From NCBI GenBank assembly GCA_022828225.1, contig JAJEJG010000002.1:20268-84267 (forward strand): 64,000 nt of DNA, given 5' to 3'. The DNA comes from Nitrospirales bacterium (GTDB taxonomy: Bacteria; Nitrospirota; Nitrospiria; Nitrospirales; UBA8639). Below the pieces are notes generated by a model. It was not told where the DNA came from. It was given only the letters and a program-made list of their open reading frames with translations, and searched no databases. Positions 2,527-55,362 of this stretch are shown piece after piece (within the stretch, counting starts at the first letter, position 1; every line of letters begins with the position of its first letter). The position numbers and the translations under genes are program-made.

Positions 2527-4206
2527 ATGGGCTTGAGAAAACACGAAGACTACAACCGGGAGATCGAGAAACTACGCGGAGAACTCCAATCCCTGGAAAC
2601 CGAAATGCGCCATCTCTACGAGACGCGCATGAAACTCCAGCAATCGGAGAAACAGAATAAACGCTTGGCGGACAGTCTCCAGGAAGCCAAAGCCCAGATT
2701 GAAACCCTCCGCACGGAGATTGCCAAACTCACGGCCCCGCCCTCGGCGTATGCGCTCTTCTGCAGTTTGAATGATGACGCCAGCGCCAACGTCTACGTCT
2801 CGGGCAGAAAAATGCGCGTCAGCGTGCATAGTTCGGTGTCGAGCGCGACCCTGCGAAAAGGACAGGAAGTGATTTTGAATGAAGCCTTGAACATCATCGA
2901 GGCGCGGGCCTTCGATCCCCAGGGACAAGTGGTGAAGATGAAAGATCAACTGGATGGCTCGCGGGCGCTGATTCAATTGCACCACGACGAAGAACGCATC
3001 GTCGAACTGGGAGAGCCGCTACTGCACGAATCGTTGAGCGTGGGCGACCACCTGCTCTATGACCCCCGGTCGGGCTACGTCATCGAAAAAATCCCCAAAT
3101 CCGAAATCGAAGAGTTGGTCCTCGAAGAAGTCCCGGACGTGCAATATGAAGATGTGGGGGGATTGACCAAAGAAGTCGAGCAGGTAACGGATGCCGTGGA
3201 ATTGCCCTTTTTGTACCCGGAACTGTTCAAGGAACATCGTCTGACTCCACCCAAAGGTGTCCTCTTGTACGGACCTCCCGGGTGTGGAAAGACCATGATC
3301 GCCAAAGCCGTGGCGAATTCCATTTCCAGGAAAATGCGGCATTTGTCCGGCAAGGACGTGCGCAGTTACTTCCTGCACGTGAAGGGACCCGAGCTCTTGA
3401 ACAAATACGTGGGTGAATCCGAACGGTACATCCGCGAGGTTTTCGCCAAGGCGCGGGACAAAGCCGTAACCGGGAATCCCGTCGTGGTGTTTTTCGATGA
3501 AATGGACGCGTTGTTCCGCACGCGGGGGTCAGGGATTTCGTCCGATATCGAATCCACGATCGTCCCGCAGTTTTTGGCGGAGATCGACGGGGTCGAAAAG
3601 CTCAAGAACGTGATCGTCATCGGGGCGAGCAACCGGCAGGACCTCATCGATCCGGCGGTGTTACGAACGGGGCGGTTGGACGTGAAAGTCAAAATCCCCA
3701 GACCGAACAAACAGGGCGCGCGGGATATTTTCGCCAAGTACCTCACCGATGACCTGCCGTTCGCCAAAGAGGAACTCGACCGGCACGCCCGGGACCGGCA
3801 GGCCCTGGTCTCGCACCTGCTCGACCTGACGGTGGAGTCCATGTATGCCACGTCGGAGGACAACAAGTTCCTGGAAGTGACCTATGCCAACGGCGAAAAA
3901 GAACTCCTCTATTTCAAAGACTTTGCCAGTGGCGCCCTGATCGAAGGCGTGGTTTCGCGGGCGAAAAAAATCGCGGTGAAACGGGCCATCGGGACGGGTG
4001 AAAAAGGCCTGAAGGAAGAAGACCTCTTGTGCGCCATCCGGGATGAATTCAAGGCGCACGAGGATCTGCCCAATACGACCAATCCCGATGACTGGGCCCG
4101 CATCGCCGGGAAAAAAGGCGAAAAAATCATCCACGTGCGGACCCTGACCCCCGGCTCGGAAGGACCACGCGAGATCGAAACCGTGAGTGCCGGGCATTAC
4201 TTTTAG
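2527..4206 (+). CDS. mpa: Proteasome-associated AAA ATPase Mpa/ARC
   Basis: N-terminal coiled coil (EIEKLRGELQSLETEMRHL...), Walker A GPPGCGKT, C-terminus ...GHYF with the penultimate Tyr of an HbYX-type tail. Followed by dop. Start taken at ATG 2527 (MGLRKHEDY); the track ORF opens at 2443. Confidence 0.9.
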   Translation: MGLRKHEDYNREIEKLRGELQSLETEMRHLYETRMKLQQSEKQNKRLADSLQEAKAQIETLRTEIAKLTAPPSAYALFCSLNDDASANVYVSGRKMRVSVHSSVSSATLRKGQEVILNEALNIIEARAFDPQGQVVKMKDQLDGSRALIQLHHDEERIVELGEPLLHESLSVGDHLLYDPRSGYVIEKIPKSEIEELVLEEVPDVQYEDVGGLTKEVEQVTDAVELPFLYPELFKEHRLTPPKGVLLYGPPGCGKTMIAKAVANSISRKMRHLSGKDVRSYFLHVKGPELLNKYVGESERYIREVFAKARDKAVTGNPVVVFFDEMDALFRTRGSGISSDIESTIVPQFLAEIDGVEKLKNVIVIGASNRQDLIDPAVLRTGRLDVKVKIPRPNKQGARDIFAKYLTDDLPFAKEELDRHARDRQALVSHLLDLTVESMYATSEDNKFLEVTYANGEKELLYFKDFASGALIEGVVSRAKKIAVKRAIGTGEKGLKEEDLLCAIRDEFKAHEDLPNTTNPDDWARIAGKKGEKIIHVRTLTPGSEGPREIETVSAGHYF

Positions 4207-5699
4207 TGCTCTTGCTCAATGGAGAGTCTTTGCAGCGCATTATCGGCACAGAAACGGAATTTGGTGTCGCCTCGCGTCACGTCCACGCATCCGATCCCGT
4301 TGAGAACTCCCTCCACCTGATCAGTCAGTACCCGTCGCTCATCGCCCCACAGGCTATTTGGGATTACGAGAACGAAAACCCCCTGCGTGACGCGCGCGGG
4401 TTTGAAGTCGAGGGCGAACGCGAACGTCCGGGGCCCGAGTATAACCGGGCGCTCAACAAACTCCTGGCGAACGGCGGCCGCCTGTACGTGGACGGGGCCC
4501 ATCCCGAATATTCCACGCCGGAATGCAGTACGGCGCGCGAATTGGTCGCGTATGAACGCGCGGGGGAACTCGTGGCCGCCAAGTGCCTGGAGGCCCTGAA
4601 CCGGACGGCGGAGGGGTACGTGCTGTACAAGAACAATTCCGACGGCAAGGGGAACAGCTACGGGTACCATGAAAACTATCTGATGGACCGCTCGGTGCCG
4701 TTCGACGTGATTCTTCAGGGCTTGTTGCCGTTTTTCGTGTCGCGTCCCATCGTGGCGGGAGCCGGGAAAGTCGGCGCGGAAAACGGAGCCGCGCCCGCGA
4801 CGTATCAGATCTCTCAACGCGCGGACTTTTTCGAATGCGTGGCGGACCTCAATACCATGGTCAAACGACCTCTGATCAACACCCGTGATGAGCCACATGC
4901 GGACCCCGCGCGGTTTCGCCGGTTACACGTGATCGTCGGTGACGCCAACATGGCGGAACTCTCCACGTACCTGAAGGTGGGCACCACGGCGATCGTGACG
5001 CACATGCTGGACGAAGGCCACGACGTCCCCGCGTTTGAGCTGGAGAACCCCGTGGATGCCGTCAAGGTCGTTTCACGCGATCTCACCGTCAAGGCCGACC
5101 TGAAGTTGGTCCGGGGCGGCGCGACCAATGCGTTGGCCATCCAACGCGCCTACCTCCGGACCGCGCATGAGTTTTACGCCTGTCGCGAGTTGTCGCCTGC
5201 GACCAAGGACGTGTTGGTGCGATGGGAAAACGTCCTGGATAAACTCGAACGCGATCCCGGGCAATTGGCCGCGGAACTCGATTGGGTGGCCAAACGGCAA
5301 ATGATCGAGTCGTACGTGGACCGAAAAGGCTGCGGATGGAATGATCCGCGCGTGGCCTTGATGGACCTGCAATACCACGACGTGCGGCCGGACAAGGGCC
5401 TGTATTATACGCTCGAACGGAGCCGGCGGATTGAACGCTTGCTGGATGACGAGGAAATCGTCGCCGCGGAATTGCAGGCCCCGAGAGGGACGCGCGCCTA
5501 TTTTCGCGGCGCCTGTCTCCGGAAATTTCCCCAGCAGATCTACGGAGCCAGTTGGACCTCGGTGCTCTTCGACGTCGGAGACGTGGCCGTCAAACGGGTG
5601 CCGTTGATGGACCCCTTGAGGGGCACGCAGGATCTGACCAATGAGTTGTTGGAAGGCGTGGAGACCGCGCAACAACTCCTGGACCGTTTATCGGCTTGA
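4206..5699 (+). CDS. dop: Pup deamidase/depupylase Dop
   Basis: LQRIIGTETEFGV...WDYENENPLRDARGF...GGRLYVDGAHPEYSTPECS matches Dop rather than PafA. The true start may be TTG 4230, giving MQRIIGTE. Confidence 0.88.
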   Translation: MLLLNGESLQRIIGTETEFGVASRHVHASDPVENSLHLISQYPSLIAPQAIWDYENENPLRDARGFEVEGERERPGPEYNRALNKLLANGGRLYVDGAHPEYSTPECSTARELVAYERAGELVAAKCLEALNRTAEGYVLYKNNSDGKGNSYGYHENYLMDRSVPFDVILQGLLPFFVSRPIVAGAGKVGAENGAAPATYQISQRADFFECVADLNTMVKRPLINTRDEPHADPARFRRLHVIVGDANMAELSTYLKVGTTAIVTHMLDEGHDVPAFELENPVDAVKVVSRDLTVKADLKLVRGGATNALAIQRAYLRTAHEFYACRELSPATKDVLVRWENVLDKLERDPGQLAAELDWVAKRQMIESYVDRKGCGWNDPRVALMDLQYHDVRPDKGLYYTLERSRRIERLLDDEEIVAAELQAPRGTRAYFRGACLRKFPQQIYGASWTSVLFDVGDVAVKRVPLMDPLRGTQDLTNELLEGVETAQQLLDRLSA

Positions 5700-5710
5700 A
5701 CGAGCCACGC

Positions 5711-5801
5711 TTCTACCTCCCCTCGCCCCTCCTTACAAAGGAGGGGAAGGTTTGATGACTTTATACCTCCTCTTTGTAAGGGGAGGGAAGGTGGGGTAGA
5801 G
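5711..5801. repeat. Family-B REP-like hairpin units, inverted pair (B1) in the canonical pup slot
   Basis: CTACCTCCCCTCGCCCCTCCTTACAAAGGAGGGGA (5711-5748) and CCTCCTCTTTGTAAGGGGAGGGAAGGTGGGGTAGAG (5766-5801). Each holds a CCTCCCCTT-TGT-AAGGGGAGG type stem-loop. Confidence 0.85.
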
Positions 5802-5896
5802 TGTCTGGGCATGGGAAGGGGAAGTAGATGAGGGAATCGTCAACAAATGACAGAACACATAGAAAATCACAGAGTATGAGGTAACTTCTGGCCACC

Positions 5897-6733
5897 ATGA
5901 AATCGTTCCTGTCCCAGATGCCCGTGAATCAATGCTCCAGTTTTTTTGATTTCATCCATCAGACTCGGCCCGAACTGACGCCCGCGGCGCGGTGGGGGAG
6001 CGAAGGGCACGTCTCCGCGTCGGCGGACGAGATTCAGCGGCACGTCGTCTCACAGCTTGCTCACGGGACGACCGTGTTGGCCGTGAAATACGAGAAGGGC
6101 GTCGTGATCGTCGGTGATCGCCGCGCCATCGAAGGCTATCAGGTCGCGTCGCGTCGCATGGAGAAGGTCTTCAAAACCGACAGCCATTCGGCTATCGCCA
6201 TCGCCGGGGCCGCGGGTCCCTGCATGGAAATGGCCAAGCTGTTCGGGATCGAACTGGAACATTATGAAAAACTGGACGGCGTCCCGTTATCCTGCGAAGG
6301 CAAGGCCAACCGGTTGGGGCAGATGGTGAAAGCCAATTTGCCCATGGTCATGCAAGGGTTGGTCGTGATTCCGCTCTTCGTGGGGTTCGACCTGAAGCAA
6401 CAGGAGGGCCGGATTTTCAAATACGACGTCACCGGCGGAAAATACGAAGAAACGGAGTATCACGCGGTCGGGTCCGGGGGAAAAGACGCCCGGGTGACCA
6501 TCAAGGAACGGTTTCGCAAGAACTTGTCCCAGCCCGAAGCGATTGCCCTGGGGCTCCAGGCGATCCTGAGCGCGGCGGAAGAGGACTTGGGAACCGGCGG
6601 ACCCGATGCCTTCCGGGGCATCTATCCGACCATCAAAATCGTCGACGTCCAAGGCGTGCGGGACGTGGAAGAATCCGAGGTGGCGTCCCAATGCGACCGT
6701 TTGGCTCAAGCACGACCCGGGGGTGAATCCTGA
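5897..6733 (+). CDS. prcB: Proteasome beta subunit PrcB (with propeptide)
   Basis: 278 aa. Propeptide ends ...QLAHG and is followed by TTVLAVKYEKGVV, the catalytic Thr1 context. ATGA overlap with prcA. Confidence 0.9.
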   Translation: MKSFLSQMPVNQCSSFFDFIHQTRPELTPAARWGSEGHVSASADEIQRHVVSQLAHGTTVLAVKYEKGVVIVGDRRAIEGYQVASRRMEKVFKTDSHSAIAIAGAAGPCMEMAKLFGIELEHYEKLDGVPLSCEGKANRLGQMVKANLPMVMQGLVVIPLFVGFDLKQQEGRIFKYDVTGGKYEETEYHAVGSGGKDARVTIKERFRKNLSQPEAIALGLQAILSAAEEDLGTGGPDAFRGIYPTIKIVDVQGVRDVEESEVASQCDRLAQARPGGES

Positions 6734-7416
6734 TGACGCTGCCGTTCTACGTGTCCCCCGAACAATTAATGCAAGACAAGGCGGAGTATGCCAAGAAAGG
6801 CATTGCCAAGGGCCGGTCGATCGTGGCCATCGAGTACCGCGACGGCGTACTGTTCGTCGCGGACAATCCCAGCAGTTCATTATTCAAGATCTCCGAAATT
6901 TACGACAACATCGCCTTTTCCGGAGCGGGGCGATACAGCGAATTCGAAAGCCTGCGCAAGGCGGGCATTCAACACGCCGACTTGAAGGGGTTCATGTACA
7001 GTCGTGAAGACGTCACGGCCCGTTCCCTGGCCAACGGGTATTCGCAGACCCTGGGCACGATATTCAGCCAGGAACTGAAACCCTTCGAAGTGGAAATCCT
7101 TTTGGCTCAAATCGGAGAACAACCCGAACAGACGGAACTGTACCGCATCGCGTTCGATGGAACGATCATTCACGAAAAGGAATTCGTCGCCATCGGAGGC
7201 CGGGCGGACGCCGTAGTATCCGCCTTGCGCGCAATGGGATCGGAACAAGTCCCCGACCTGAAAACCGCCCTCACCCGGTGCATGAGCGCCCTCGAAACCG
7301 CCACGAGCCAGACCATATCCCTCCAAGCCCTCGAAGTGGCACTCCTCGACCGCACCCGCACCGGCCGCAAATTCCGCCGCATCCCCGCAGAAGAAGCCGT
7401 CACCCTCCTGTCCTAA
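6733..7416 (+). CDS. prcA: Proteasome alpha subunit PrcA
   Basis: 227 aa. MTLPFYVSPEQLMQDKAEYAKKGIAKGRSIVAIEYRDGVLFVADNPS...ISEIYD matches bacterial 20S alpha subunits. Confidence 0.9.
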   Translation: MTLPFYVSPEQLMQDKAEYAKKGIAKGRSIVAIEYRDGVLFVADNPSSSLFKISEIYDNIAFSGAGRYSEFESLRKAGIQHADLKGFMYSREDVTARSLANGYSQTLGTIFSQELKPFEVEILLAQIGEQPEQTELYRIAFDGTIIHEKEFVAIGGRADAVVSALRAMGSEQVPDLKTALTRCMSALETATSQTISLQALEVALLDRTRTGRKFRRIPAEEAVTLLS

Positions 7417-7418
7417 CC

Positions 7419-7477
7419 TCCCTTATTCCCTTCCTTTGTAAGCCTGTCCTGAGCCTGTCGAAGGGGAGGGGCAAGGT
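7419..7477. repeat. Family-B unit with a family-C segment inserted in its loop (B2/C)
   Basis: TTCCCTTCCTTTGTAAG-[CCTGTCCTGAGCCTGTCGAAGG]-GGAGGGGCAAGGT. The B stem halves are split by the 22-bp C motif. Confidence 0.7.
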
Positions 7478-7521
7478 CCGCATTGAGGATCTCCCACTCA
7501 CCTTGAACACGCGTAACAGGC

Positions 7522-7564
7522 TTGAAAAAGCGACTCTTTCCGTGTATCTTGACTAACTTAGTCA
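7522..7564 (+). promoter_or_regulatory. Candidate sigma-70 promoter plus palindromic operator of the phd/vapC pair
   Basis: TTGAAA (7522-7527), 17-nt spacer, TATCTT (7545-7550). Perfect palindrome TGACTAAcTTAGTCA at 7550-7564, 18 nt before the antitoxin ATG. Confidence 0.45.
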
Positions 7565-7581
7565 TAAAGGAGGAAGCCATT

Positions 7582-7878
7582 ATGGGTAGATCTCGTCAAG
7601 CCAAGCAGACCGGTTCGACGCGGCTTCACGGCTGGAAGTTGGGAGAGGCCAAAGCGAAGTTCAGCGACGTTGTCCGCCTGGCTGCCTCAGGCCAGCCACA
7701 ACGTGTGACGGTGCGAGGCAGGGAGACGGTCGTCGTCGTGGAGGCGTCCGAATTCGAACGCCTTCGTGCGCGGAGCACGTCGGCCAGCCTGCACGATCTC
7801 TTGTCTCGGTCTCCCTTGAACCGCTTGGAGTTCGGCGATGAAGGCGTACGGAGTCCGGTCCGTGCGGTCGAGTTGTGA
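7582..7878 (+). CDS. Phd/YefM-type antitoxin
   Basis: 98 aa. WKLGEAKAKFSDVVRLAASGQPQRVTVRGRETVVVVEASEFERL is typical prevent-host-death. AAGGAGG RBS before ATG 7582. Stop overlaps the vapC GTG. Confidence 0.8.
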   Translation: MGRSRQAKQTGSTRLHGWKLGEAKAKFSDVVRLAASGQPQRVTVRGRETVVVVEASEFERLRARSTSASLHDLLSRSPLNRLEFGDEGVRSPVRAVEL

Positions 7879-8300
7879 ATGGATGGCTGCTCGATACCAA
7901 CGTCGTGTCCGAGTTACGCAAGACCCGGCCCAACCGGCGCGTGAAGGCGTGGTCCGATGCGCAAGCGGCGGATAACTTCTTTCTCAGCAGCGTCACCCTT
8001 GCCGAGATTCGTTTCGGGATCGAGTGCCAAGCAGACCCCATACTTCGCGAGGAACTCGAAGCGTGGCTTGCCCACCGGCTGAGGCCCTGGTTTGCCGGGC
8101 GTATTTTGCCCGTGGACGAGGAAGTCATCCTGGAATGGCGCCGCATGGTCGCGCGAGGCAGAGAAAGGGCGATTACGTTCAGTCAACCGGATCTCTTTAT
8201 CGCCGCGACCGCACAAGTGCATGCCCTGACGCTCTGTACCCGTAACGAGAGAGACTTTCGCAGGGCCGACATTCGGGTCTTCAATCCTTGGTCGGAGTGA
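7875..8300 (+). CDS. vapC: PIN-domain toxin VapC (FitB-like)
   Basis: 141 aa. WLLDTNVVSELRK...SSVTLAEIRFGIE...LFIAATAQVHALTLCTRNERDF carries the PIN acidic residues. GTGA overlap with the antitoxin. Confidence 0.85.
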   Translation: MNGWLLDTNVVSELRKTRPNRRVKAWSDAQAADNFFLSSVTLAEIRFGIECQADPILREELEAWLAHRLRPWFAGRILPVDEEVILEWRRMVARGRERAITFSQPDLFIAATAQVHALTLCTRNERDFRRADIRVFNPWSE

Positions 8301-8328
8301 GCAGGCTAGGTACGCCCACTTTGCGAAA

Positions 8329-8483
8329 CATAGCAAAATAATAGCAGGACATAGCAGAAAACATAGCAAGTTATAGCAGAATCATAGCAAACATAGCGTG
8401 GCATAGCATGAAACATAGCAATCATAGCATGAAACATAGCAAGACATAGCAACAGTGCAACAAAACATAGCAAAAGCATAGCA
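8329..8483 (+). repeat. Helically phased array of 15 (C)ATAGCA heptamers
   Basis: ATAGCA starts at 8330, 8341, 8351, 8363, 8373, 8384, 8393 (ATAGCG), 8403, 8415, 8424, 8436, 8446, 8454 (AGTGCA), 8467, 8478. All share one orientation. Spacings run 8-13 bp, mean about 10.6. AT-rich and non-coding. Confidence 0.9.
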
Positions 8484-8484
8484 A

Positions 8485-8763
8485 TGTCATGCCCGACGCC
8501 GATCGGGCATCCAGCGTCTTTTCTTTTTCCTGCGGGGTTTCGCCCCCGCACGCCGAGGTTCCTTCGGCAGGTCCTTCGCGTTGCTCAGGACAAGCTCAGG
8601 ACAGGCTCTTTTATTTCGGCAAAAGGATCCAGAACCATCGGCGCCCGGGCGCAGCCCCGCCCGCAGGCGCCAAGACGTGGCGGCATAAGATGCCGCGGCT
8701 ACGAATGTAAAAAAATGAAAGGAGAGGACGCTGGATTCCCGATTAAAAATGTCGGGAATGACA
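8485..8763. repeat. Family-A arms enclosing about 200 bp (copy A2, expanded or compound)
   Basis: Left arm TGTCATGCCCGACGCCGATCGGGCATCCAGCGTCTTTT (8485-8522). Right arm AGGACGCTGGATTCCCGATTAAAAATGTCGGGAATGACA (8725-8763). Interior holds a family-C motif (8573-8606). Confidence 0.6.
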
Positions 8764-8870
8764 AGAGGGGAGTCGGGGCTGACAAGAGGGGCGTTGGGGA
8801 ATTGGGGATGCCAGGAAAGGAGGCGGACGCGTCTGTTCCGTCTGTGTCACGTCTATGCTAACATGAAAGC

Positions 8871-10244
8871 ATGAAACGGATTTTCGGACTGGAGTGTGAA
8901 TACGGGCTCACCTTCTCGCCCAACGGCCGGGTGTATCTGCCCATTGAAAAAATTCTGGGGTACATCTTCGAAGGGTTGATCCCGAACAGTTGGCCGTCCA
9001 ACGCGTTCCTGACGAACGGGGCCAGGTTTTATCAGGATACCGGGTGCCATCCCGAGTATGCCACGCCGGAGTGCGACGACATTTTCGAGTTGGTGGTGCA
9101 CGAAAAAGCCGGCGAGCGCATCCTGGAATCCTGTTTGCCCGCGGCGGAAGAACGTCTCCGGGAAGAAGGGCTGGCCGGGGACATCTATATTTTCAAGAAC
9201 AACACGGATTCCCTGGGGAACACCTACGGGTGTCATGAAAACTTTTTGATGCAGCGTGACGTGGATTTCTGGAAGGTGGCGGAACAGTTGATCCCGTTTT
9301 TCGTGACGCGACAGATTTATTCAGGCGCGGGGAAAGTGCTCAAGGTCTCGGGCAAACCGCACTATTTTCTGTCCCAGCGGGCCCAGCACATTCACGAAAA
9401 AACCTCGTCTTCCACGACCTCGTCCCGCAGCATCATCAACACGCGGGATGAGCCGCATGCGGATGCGGAACGGTATCGACGCCTCCATATCATTCTCGGG
9501 GATTCCAATATGTCGGAGTTCGCGACGTACCTGAAGGTCGGCACTGCGGATCTGGTGTTGTCCATGATCGAGGCCGGGTATTTTATCCAGGGTATTGAAT
9601 TGGAAGATCCCGTCAAAGCCATCAGGGAAATTTCCCGTGACCCCACGTTGAAGAAAAAGGTGAAATTGGACGACGGGCGGGAGTTCTCCGCCTTGGAAAT
9701 CCAACGCATCTTTTTGGAAAAGGCCTCGGAATTTCTCCACGCCCGGCCTTATGACAAGGTGCTGGCCGACGTGCTGACGGAATGGGAACGCGTATTGAAC
9801 GCATTGGCGGATGACCCCATGCAGTTGGTCAAGGAGGTCGATTGGGTGACGAAGCGCTGGATTATTCAGTCGTATATCGACCGCAAAGGGTGCGGGTGGG
9901 ATGATCCGCGAGTGGCGATGATGGATCTGCAATATCACGACGTGAACCGGAAGCGCGGGCTCTATTACATATTGGAGGCGCACGACAAGACGGTGAAAAT
10001 GGTGGATGAAGCCGCCGTGGAACGCGCCACGTCGATTCCGCCCCAGTCCACCCGCGCCAAGGTGCGAGGCGACTTTATCCGGTTCGCCCGGGCCAAGAAC
10101 CGGTCCTACACGGTCGATTGGACGTACTTGAAATTAAACGGCTATTGGGAAGAAACGATCTTGTGCATGGATCCTTTTTGTGCGTCCAGCCGGCGGGTGG
10201 ATGAACTATTGGCCCAGGTGTCTCCCGCCTCCCTCCGGACGTAA
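8871..10244 (+). CDS. pafA: Pup-protein ligase PafA
   Basis: 457 aa. MKRIFGLECEYGLTF...NAFLTNGARFYQDTGCHPEYATPECD matches PafA and is paralogous to Dop. Confidence 0.88.
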   Translation: MKRIFGLECEYGLTFSPNGRVYLPIEKILGYIFEGLIPNSWPSNAFLTNGARFYQDTGCHPEYATPECDDIFELVVHEKAGERILESCLPAAEERLREEGLAGDIYIFKNNTDSLGNTYGCHENFLMQRDVDFWKVAEQLIPFFVTRQIYSGAGKVLKVSGKPHYFLSQRAQHIHEKTSSSTTSSRSIINTRDEPHADAERYRRLHIILGDSNMSEFATYLKVGTADLVLSMIEAGYFIQGIELEDPVKAIREISRDPTLKKKVKLDDGREFSALEIQRIFLEKASEFLHARPYDKVLADVLTEWERVLNALADDPMQLVKEVDWVTKRWIIQSYIDRKGCGWDDPRVAMMDLQYHDVNRKRGLYYILEAHDKTVKMVDEAAVERATSIPPQSTRAKVRGDFIRFARAKNRSYTVDWTYLKLNGYWEETILCMDPFCASSRRVDELLAQVSPASLRT

Positions 10245-12880: not shown

Positions 12881-13013
12881 TGTCATCCTCGACGCTTGTC
12901 CCCGACTTGATCGGGGACCCAGACATTCTACTGGGATCCAGGGTCTTTGCTTTGTTCGACATCCGTGAAGACAAAAGACACTGGATTCCCGATTATTAAC
13001 GTCGGGAATGACA
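12881..13013. repeat. Family-A compound element (A3)
   Basis: TGTCATCCTCGACGCTTGTCCCCGACTTGATCGGGGACCCAG...AAAGACACTGGATTCCCGATTATTAACGTCGGGAATGACA. Confidence 0.8.
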
Positions 13014-14456: not shown

Positions 14457-14520
14457 TGTCATCCTTGACTACTCCCGTCTGTCATTCCCGATATTTTTAA
14501 TCGGGAATCCAGCGTCTTTT
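14457..14520. repeat. Family-A left arm only (A5)
   Basis: TGTCATCCTTGACTACTCCCGTCTGTCATTCCCGATATTTTTAATCGGGAATCCAGCGTCTTTT. No matching right arm follows. Confidence 0.7.
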
Positions 14521-15927: not shown

Positions 15928-16030
15928 TGTCATCCTCGACATTTTTAATCGAGGATCCAGCGTCTTTGTTTTTTCATTGTCCGTAAAGATAAAAGACACT
16001 GGATTCCCGATTACTAACGTCGGGAATGAC
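15928..16030. repeat. Family-A element (A6)
   Basis: TGTCATCCTCGACATTTTTAATCGAGGATCCAGCGTCTTT...AAAGACACTGGATTCCCGATTACTAACGTCGGGAATGAC. Confidence 0.85.
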
Positions 16031-35710: not shown

Positions 35711-35809
35711 TGTCATTCCCGACATCCTTAATCGGGAATCCAGAGTCTTTGCTTTTTCCTCAGGTGTGCAGGATAAAGACGCTGGATTCCTGCTTTCGCA
35801 GGAATGACA
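35711..35809. repeat. Family-A element (A8)
   Basis: TGTCATTCCCGACATCCTTAATCGGGAATCCAGAGTCTTT...AAAGACGCTGGATTCCTGCTTTCGCAGGAATGACA. Confidence 0.85.
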
Positions 35810-36668: not shown

Positions 36669-36769
36669 TGTCATCCTCGACATTTTTAATCGAGGATCCA
36701 GCGTCTTTGTCCGTTTCTTCTGGTTGTGAAGGCGAAAGACACTGGATTCCTGCTTTCGCAGGAATGACA
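36669..36769. repeat. Family-A element (A9)
   Basis: TGTCATCCTCGACATTTTTAATCGAGGATCCAGCGTCTTT...AAAGACACTGGATTCCTGCTTTCGCAGGAATGACA. Confidence 0.85.
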
Positions 36770-55249: not shown

Positions 55250-55362
55250 TGTCATCCCCGACCTGATCGGGGATCCAGTGTCTTTACGGACGAAAAAAAG
55301 AAAAACCCTGGATCCTCGATTAAAAATGTCGAGGATGACAGAAAGAAGCGGCGGGAATGACA
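55250..55362. repeat. Family-A compound element (A11)
   Basis: TGTCATCCCCGACCTGATCGGGGATCCAGTGTCTTT...CTGGATCCTCGATTAAAAATGTCGAGGATGACAGAAAGAAGCGGCGGGAATGACA. The spacer is near-identical to A10. Confidence 0.85.

Follow-up and report, generated by a model that had tools for sequence, protein, structure and literature searches.

What does a phased array of fifteen short repeats mean behind a toxin gene, in the middle of a Pup-proteasome gene cluster? The question was raised by a 64-kb stretch of a Nitrospirales genome (assembly GCA_022828225.1, contig JAJEJG010000002.1; the whole 64,000 nucleotides are called the window below), in which copies of the heptamer (C)ATAGCA, all in one orientation, follow a vapC gene. 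The original prediction, which was made from the sequence alone, had likened this tract to plasmid iterons, to ParR-type parC centromeres or to a landing pad for a cooperatively binding regulator. We observed that the window tract is one copy of an undescribed, lineage-specific family of dispersed intergenic repeats in Nitrospirales metagenome-assembled genomes (MAGs).

A dispersed family of CATAGCA arrays in Nitrospirales

A recount of the window array gave the same copy number, motif variants and series of spacings as predicted (start to start 11, 10, 12, 10, 11, 9, 10, 12, 9, 12, 10, 8, 13 and 11 bp; range 8-13, mean 10.57 bp). The one discrepancy was trivial, a C preceding 13 of the 15 copies and not 12. 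Long A-rich spacers alternate with short ones, so that the double unit is about 21 bp, and one such unit, already noticed in the array core, has recently been duplicated in tandem (Table 1). Positions 8330-8483 have 13 exact ATAGCA copies, all on the + strand, and the remaining 64 kb has 8 on the two strands taken together; in dinucleotide-preserving shuffles of the complete window the count averaged 8.3 and reached at most 16. The tract is indeed an AT-rich island in GC-rich DNA (GC 0.40 vs about 0.58-0.62 in the flanks, AT skew +0.44). Its first CATAGCA begins, as stated earlier, at the 29th base past the vapC stop (8300), a gap of 28 nt. A coding repeat was rejected, since the period is no multiple of 3 and TAG stands in all three + frames; the open reading frames (ORFs) across the tract are non-credible only (81 aa on the - strand), in agreement with the earlier reading. 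There was no further array in the window, degenerate ones included.

One genome per prokaryotic species was then scanned with a pattern of three CATAGCA 2-6 nt apart, which matched at least 118 stretches. Most of these were strict-period microsatellites in unrelated taxa. Irregular arrays of 7-18 copies at 9-12 nt were found at no fewer than 19 loci, and among the matches listed they came only from MAGs titled Nitrospirales or Nitrospira. A metagenome scan seeded with the leader sequence described below added three more arrays, likewise from Nitrospirales MAGs. The proposed search of related genomes for clustered CATAGCA thus revealed a minimum of about 15 intergenic sites with arrays, independent of one another, in these MAGs. 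The arrays stand on chromosomes 2.3-3.2 Mb long, several to a genome, and complete chromosomes carry at least three to four each (at least three in OZ242026, at least four in OZ241905). No further arrays were seen in 93 kb of related Nitrospirales DNA (L228-L244), and we found no description of CATAGCA arrays in the literature. Several of the bins concerned (bin75, SB0662, SB0677 and the jk18 series) are, we assume, sponge metagenome MAGs, and the array-bearing Nitrospirales are apparently sponge-associated.

A phage or plasmid origin was rejected: IMG/VR contained strict-period microsatellites of the CATAGCA motif and no irregular array, and there was no BLAST match to the arrays in PLSDB or INPHARED, with the caveat of the BLAST low-complexity filter.

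When we compared the arrays, a common anatomy emerged. A short conserved leader precedes 7-18 CATAGCA copies in one orientation, and many arrays end in an inverted heptamer or in a short tail that is likewise conserved. The leader consensus GTCCGCCCGCTTTGCGGAA lies directly 5' of arrays at non-orthologous loci. The leader extends to about 94 nt in L022, L024/L090, L112 and L225, where it is about 90% conserved, and to 62 nt in L068. The type A tail, CATAGCAaTGCGATGTTTGCACGAG, is found in L016, L024, L061, L090, L109 and L112, and in all six its inverted heptamer directly adjoins the final direct copy (CATAGCAaTGCGATG). The type B tail, (A/C)AAGCCTTTT, is found in L027, L065, L068, L120, L225 and L226; the window copy has lost its tail relative to L120. 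In type-A copies the leader with the first unit and the tail form an imperfect terminal inverted repeat of 13-14 nt (TGCGGAACATAGCA ... TGCGATGTTTGCA). Type-B copies and the window copy lack this repeat, and so do L076/L082, whose arrays have neither leader nor tail. Inverted heptamers stand 5' of the array in L034 and L079, and L034 also has the perfect palindrome CATAGCATGCTATG.

The order of spacers is partly shared as well. Several arrays open with the series aaat / gga / g(g/a)aaa / agt, and the block g-[TA]AG[CT]GCA-acaaaa-CATAGCA-aaa(g/t) recurs across arrays. Since non-orthologous arrays share leader, tails and partly spacer order, whole arrays must have been copied to new sites. Together with the empty sites described below, the conserved ends and shared spacer order show an element that is, or formerly was, mobile as a unit.

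Helical register, motif constraint and predicted curvature

Pooling 258 spacings over 22 related arrays gave a mean of 10.45 bp (standard deviation 0.89), with 98 spacings of 10 bp, 105 of 11 bp, 29 of 9 bp and 18 of 12 bp. Mean spacings of single arrays cluster at 10.1-10.9, many of them at exactly 10.50. Successive spacings were negatively correlated (lag-1 autocorrelation -0.44), the variance of adjacent sums was 0.91 vs 1.60 expected under independence, and the commonest adjacent sum was 21. Of 20 spacings directly after one of 9 bp, 17 were 11 or 12 bp, and all 18 that came after one of 12 bp were 9 or 10 bp. In fit to a straight lattice, the observed order beat every one of 2000 pooled shuffles. 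Long and short spacers compensate, and therefore the copies keep to a lattice within about 1 bp over up to 18 copies. The repeat unit is thus a two-turn pair of 21 bp, a long A-rich spacer with its heptamer followed by a short spacer with its heptamer. The helical phasing first noticed in the window array is therefore kept across the 22 related arrays.

Constraint falls much more heavily on the heptamer than on the spacers. In the family logo, C (84%)-A-T-A-G-C-A, each heptamer position carries 1.2-1.9 bits vs 0.2-0.6 in the spacers. The 5' flank of the heptamer is weakly A-rich, and the spacers, 2-7 nt long and variable between all units of the family, are heterogeneous (AAATC, AAAAC, AAAC, AAC, TGGC and others). 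Orthologous pairs gave the same picture. The upstream flanks are 0.97 (window/L120), 0.96 (L024/L090), 0.82 (L076/L082) and 0.73 (L014/L113) identical; the arrays align at only 66-85% identity, with reshuffled spacers and unequal copy number, while heptamer and phase are kept. Copy number differs even between strains (window vs L120, L024 vs L090). The same VapC as in the window is encoded on two assemblies, of which L119 equals the window over the array and its flanks and L120 is a close strain with a different unit composition.

It had been put forward that a hypervariable tandem repeat conserving neither motif nor phase would speak against the original prediction. Copy number and spacers are hypervariable, yet the tract is no repeat of that kind, because motif and phase are conserved. 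Retention of both despite the turnover of units is a pattern that would not be expected of a neutral minisatellite.

We also made a rough estimate of curvature with the Bolshoy-Trifonov wedge model. The window array is predicted to be the most curved 155-bp segment of the window, in line with the earlier suggestion of curved DNA; its predicted end-to-end/contour ratio is 0.73-0.75 vs a window mean of 0.965, a bend of roughly 150 degrees. For the other arrays the model gave ratios of 0.31-0.65, and about 150-270 degrees per array are predicted.

Insertion sites and neighbouring repeats

Arrays were found in all classes of intergenic region. They follow co-oriented genes (vapC, a DHHA1-domain protein with a weak Pfam match, AcrB, Dyp peroxidase, PvlArgDC), they lie between convergent genes at five independent loci (including L024/L090, L065, L068 and L076/L082), and they lie in divergent regions at L034 and at L061/L109, the latter beside a thiamine pyrophosphate (TPP) riboswitch and thiC. 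In L014 and L065 a TAG of the array is the stop codon of the upstream ORF. No gene family recurred beside arrays across the roughly 15 independent loci. As had been said of the window, nothing encoded nearby explains the heptamers.

The genes around the window array are collected in Table 1. We compared the interval between prcA and pafA in relatives, as had been proposed, and found presence/absence variation. The closest relative, L228, whose PafA is 95% identical to that of the window, lacks the whole inserted segment, and in relatives with PafA 95%, 87% and 82% identical the prcA-pafA spacer is 140, 89 and 63 nt long, with no vapBC and no array. The inserted segment consists of modules resembling repetitive extragenic palindromic (REP) sequences, phd-vapC, the array and further REP-like modules, and imperfect inverted repeats lie near its ends (7441-7464 and 8573-8607). 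A second filled and empty site was found at the convergent xth/PvlArgDC junction, where an array stands in L076/L082, while in L240-L244 the junction is 26-46 nt long. The spacers at both empty sites are strongly diverged.

Table 1. Features at and around the window array (positions in the window)
Feature	Position	Strand	Remark
prcA, proteasome alpha subunit	6733..7416	+	left flank of insertion
segment absent from closest relative L228	~7436..8717	.	between prcA and pafA, by alignment
phd/yefM-type antitoxin, 98 aa	7582..7878	+	context only
vapC, PIN-domain toxin, 141 aa	7875..8300	+	co-oriented, immediately 5' of array
leader remnant	8310..8328	+	window gtacgcccactttgcgaaa vs family consensus GTCCGCCCGCTTTGCGGAA
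array of 15 (C)ATAGCA heptamers	8329..8483	+	13 exact, plus ATAGCG at 8393 and AGTGCA at 8456
tandem duplication, 21-bp double unit CATAGCATGAAACATAGCAAT x2	8402..8443	+	inside array
REP-like hairpin (GTCATGCCCGAC..ATCGGGCATCCAG)	8486..8517	+	abuts array 3' end; dispersed family separate from arrays
pafA, Pup ligase	8871..10244	+	right flank of insertion

The five loci with the nearest phd-vapC cassettes (VapC 87-91% identical) have unrelated surroundings, a CRISPR-cas locus among them, and at no locus does an array follow the cassette. A functional tie to vapBC was rejected on this ground, and one to the Pup-proteasome cluster was rejected on the short prcA-pafA spacers of relatives. The framing of the array by vapC and the proteasome genes therefore has no functional meaning; its position beside the one and inside the other is an accident of insertion. 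In the CRISPR-cas locus (L238, PANK22 scaffold_2165), the phd-vapC cassette, 89% identical to that of the window, has inserted between a Cas_GSU0053-family gene and cas4-cas1/cas2, so that the cassette evidently moves independently; an unannotated 504-aa ORF lies between the Cas_GSU0053-family gene and the cassette.

The neighbouring cassette also bears on the likeness to plasmid systems, in which the array would be an iteron origin or a ParR/ParG-type centromere on an integrated element with a vapBC addiction module. The direct repeats at about 10.5 and 21 bp do resemble parC and iterons, and the array stands beside a toxin-antitoxin pair inside a 1.3-kb insertion. In the ParR-parC systems of R1 and pSK41 and in type Ib ribbon-helix-helix centromeres, many short direct repeats recur at about one helical turn, as in the arrays, and are bound cooperatively on one face to form a curved or superhelical nucleoprotein complex. 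Those centromeres, however, lie beside a par operon on plasmids, with one or two sites per replicon, and their iterons are 11 or 20 bp long, whereas the arrays have a 7-bp core with variable spacers, are chromosomal and multi-copy, and have no par genes near them (in the window, L119, L120 and the roughly 15 loci). Iteron origins have 17-22-bp iterons at about 22 bp, next to a rep gene, a DnaA box and an AT-rich unwinding element; the arrays have a 21-bp double unit, of which only the 7-bp core, present twice, is conserved, and there is no rep gene at any locus. No rep, parA/parM or parR/parG was present within several kb of any array, the closest vapBC cassettes have no array, and the plasmid and phage collections gave no match (under the filter caveat given above). 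With arrays multi-copy in chromosomes and often between convergent genes, the earlier likeness to iterons and parC was not supported, and a plasmid-type origin or centromere is very improbable. Type III toxin-antitoxin systems (ToxI-like) also differ: they have repeats of about 36 nt upstream of the toxin and no protein antitoxin, whereas the window array has a 10.5-nt period, lies downstream of vapC and is accompanied by Phd.

As a genomic object, the array is an interspersed repeat comparable to REP sequences and bacterial interspersed mosaic elements (BIMEs), miniature inverted-repeat transposable elements (MITEs) and cyanobacterial short tandemly repeated repetitive sequences (STRRs), all of which are intergenic, multi-copy, lineage-specific and polymorphic for presence, but it does not have their hairpins or contiguity. 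What defines REP sequences and MITEs is a hairpin or a terminal inverted repeat, whereas the arrays are non-palindromic, spaced and phased, with no significant fold; STRRs are also built of heptamers, but contiguous ones, and not set apart by variable spacers. A less probable alternative is that the arrays are selfish or neutral MITE-like or minisatellite repeats, spread by slippage and without host function, in which the heptamers are sites of a mobilising enzyme or simply the slowest-decaying part of the unit. The presence/absence polymorphism at two loci (prcA-pafA and xth/PvlArgDC), the quick turnover of units among strains that share an identical VapC, the conserved ends with an imperfect terminal inverted repeat in type-A copies, and insertions in every intergenic class would all fit. 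So would a genome crowded with other dispersed repeats, and a MITE-like element of Poribacteria with the same heptamer in three direct and two inverted subterminal repeats. A neutral minisatellite, on the other hand, should homogenise or decay by whole units, whereas here seven positions are near-invariant among scrambled spacers. The phase is kept, arrays persist at orthologous sites over about 10-25% flank divergence (L014/L113, L076/L082), no transposase is associated with them, and leader and tail are missing in L076/L082.

The Poribacteria element is conserved over about 140 bp, is intergenic and is present in several copies per genome in Poribacteria MAGs (loci L002-L005, L009, L035, L037, L045, L062, L063, L067, L078, L089, L092, L093, L101, L110 and L111). 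It has three direct TTTCATAGCA at a 12-bp step, about 75 nt with an AAACCC..GGGTTT hairpin, and two inverted copies (TTTGCTATGAAA-ACTGTGAAA). It gave no Rfam match and no covariation, and was absent from the Nitrospirales loci. Arrays of CATAGCA in other formats (three direct and one inverted copy, 12-nt tandem, 13-nt tandem, and kb-scale 10-nt arrays) were seen in further MAGs of apparent sponge-metagenome origin, namely L087 (Dehalococcoidia), L106 (Poriferihabitaceae), L033/L081 (Thaumarchaeota APA_bin_56) and L114 (an unclassified bacterium). Bins of this kind look over-represented among the matches listed, but the search pattern itself selects for the motif. In L025, a 3.3-kb contig binned with Gammaproteobacteria (Glo_16), nearly every intergenic region has arrays, direct as well as inverted, of an 11-bp unit, TTAA[CT]ATAGCA; this contig is AT-rich and gene-dense with lysine-rich proteins, looks viral or organellar and is probably mis-binned.

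Besides the hairpin that abuts the array, the REP-like family (GTCATNCCCGAC-N7-ATCGGGNATCCAG) has 8 further copies in the window (8731-8762, 12981-13012, 14481-14512, 15929-15960, 15999-16030, 35712-35743, 36670-36701 and 55308-55339), with no match in shuffles; its stem variants are compensated (CCCGAC/ATCGGG vs CCTCGAC/ATCGAGG). A 21-bp tandem repeat, GTCGGG(A/G)(A/C)TGACAAGAGGGG in 2.3 copies at 8751-8799, overlaps the end of one such hairpin just upstream of pafA. Between thiS-like and thiG-like genes (556-615), there is a hairpin of 7-nt units GATTGTG/GATTGCT; the reverse complement, ATCCACA, is similar to a DnaA-box core, and the same TTGTGGATT repeats also precede the ATAGCA arrays in L027 and L104. 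A gene in L233 (9061-9380) joins a Y1 transposase domain (IS200/RAYT-like) to a DnaA C-terminal DNA-binding domain and is a candidate mobiliser of REP-like or DnaA-box-like repeats in these genomes. Elsewhere in the proteasome cluster, no Pup-like ORF (ending GGQ or GGE) was seen between dop (4206-5699) and prcB (5897-6733), nor in the whole 64 kb, and the dop-prcB gap (5700-5896 in the window) is about 35-55 nt in relatives (34 nt in L233, 54 nt in L229); pup is therefore located elsewhere in this lineage.

Candidate roles of the arrays

We also evaluated the arrays at the level of RNA. There was no Rfam match in the window region or in 19 related loci, neither strand of the tract folded better than shuffles (z = -1.0 and 0.0), the alignment fold of the conserved 94-nt leader showed no covariation, and in consensus scans the leader had no sigma-70-like promoter, and no terminator occurred consistently. 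A known RNA or an independent small RNA (sRNA) gene was rejected on these results. An unstructured, A-rich RNA with 7-18 CAUAGCA sites, made as the 3' untranslated region (UTR) of the upstream gene or, in the long-leader copies, from a promoter of its own, could nevertheless titrate or recruit an RNA-binding protein (as CsrB/RsmZ do for CsrA) or pair with RNAs containing UGCUAUG. Such an element is unlikely, although several observations agree with it. All copies lie on one strand, which has a strong skew of A over T; at 9 of the 13 independent loci, a co-oriented gene precedes the array at a distance of -13 to +240 nt; the long-leader copies (L022, L024/L090, L112, L225) sit where there is no co-oriented gene near; and the predicted RNA is unstructured, as for a single-strand binding platform. 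An RNA, however, gives no reason for a mean of 10.45 nt with compensating spacings. Moreover, the nearest 5' gene points away from the array in L022, L034, L061/L109 and L112, the 3'-side gene converges on it in L022 and L060, palindromic or inverted copies (L034 and the type-A tails) would sequester the motif in RNA, and the promoter, terminator, covariation and Rfam results given above speak against it. CsrB/RsmZ sponge sRNAs, too, pack a short motif many times into about 150-350 nt and have paralogues within a genome. They differ in that GGA motifs are displayed in hairpin loops of an RNA with a promoter and a terminator of its own; no such feature is detectable at the arrays.

Taken together, the constrained heptamer, the free spacers, the helix-pinned period, the mixed orientations and the lack of an RNA signature point to cooperative recognition of double-stranded DNA on one face. 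Direct, inverted and palindromic arrangements of the heptamer coexist in the family, as in double-stranded operators. The reading that we prefer, at a probability of roughly 0.45, is that the arrays are landing pads for a protein that binds double-stranded DNA. The heptamers would be the recognition sites of a sequence-specific binder. A mean recurrence of 10.45 bp, with alternating spacers that keep a 21-bp register, would place all sites on one face of the helix, and sites so placed on DNA predicted to be strongly curved would favour cooperative side-by-side binding. The bound form might be a filament, or DNA wrapped around an oligomer. Historically, whole arrays were copied to new intergenic sites and afterwards gained and lost units. 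The data show the family itself, the constraint on the motif, the keeping of phase, the dispersal and the insertion polymorphism; we infer protein binding and cooperativity from the pattern of the sites, and the cellular role may be architectural, topological, regulatory or in the service of a mobile element.

In mechanism the arrays come closest to the ParR-parC and ribbon-helix-helix centromeres treated above, to omega heptad operators and to the head-to-tail operators of OmpR/PhoB-type regulators or MraZ, but they lack defining features of each. The heptads of omega (pSM19035) are also 7-bp units in 7-10 copies, mostly direct and some inverted, and each binds one dimer with cooperativity. 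They are, however, contiguous (a 7-bp step), so that the protein spirals round straight DNA, whereas the arrays step by 8-13 bp and keep to one face; omega sites also coincide in part with promoters of genes for copy control and partition, while no promoter is predicted at the arrays. There are also the operators of the OmpR/PhoB family (Pho boxes, the repeat units of Streptomyces PhoP, the a/b sites of GlnR) and MraZ boxes, in which a core of 5-7 bp and a spacer of 3-5 bp repeat head to tail at 10-11 bp, as in the arrays. The 22-bp double unit of GlnR and the binding of repeats by the ring oligomer of MraZ can likewise be compared with them. Operators of the OmpR/PhoB type, however, have 2-6 units at defined promoter positions, whereas the arrays have 7-18 units, are dispersed and often lie where no promoter is expected.

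Several points weigh against the landing pad. No candidate binder adjoins the arrays, whose neighbours are unrelated housekeeping genes (among them AcrB, rhomboid, the DHHA1-domain protein, Dyp peroxidase, a DEAD helicase, xth and the thiC leader). The 21-bp register could descend through slippage of double units, and not through selection. Many of the arrays are kin by descent, so that the spacings represent fewer independent events than their number suggests. The wedge model scores any 10.5-bp repeat as curved, the co-orientation with the upstream gene noted above is that of a 3'-UTR element (a 9:4 split that is not significant), and the number of arrays per genome and their taxonomic range are lower bounds. 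The landing pad for a cooperative regulator that was originally proposed therefore stands in part: phasing, heptamer constraint and predicted curvature fit, but no binder was found, and since arrays between convergent genes are far from promoters, the role of a classical regulator is unlikely. An improbable extension is that the arrays are wrapping or coating sites of an oligomeric protein, forming curved structures at gene ends that might, for example, pin supercoils or insulate convergent transcription units, with CATAGCA recognition shared horizontally among unrelated sponge symbionts (Nitrospirales, Poribacteria, Dehalococcoidia, Poriferihabitaceae and Thaumarchaeota).

For annotation, the locus carries a warning, since a feature beside a toxin-antitoxin cassette or within a conserved operon may have inserted independently. 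The array family is also a strain-variable, lineage-specific marker, and a DNA of 155 bp with a 7-bp motif and natural copy-number variants makes a compact system for the study of phasing, curvature and gene-end position. If the arrays are landing pads, they would represent a new class of bacterial interspersed element, built on one-face cooperative binding to curved DNA and not on hairpins, and they would imply a sequence-specific chromosomal protein in uncultured, apparently sponge-dwelling nitrite oxidisers.

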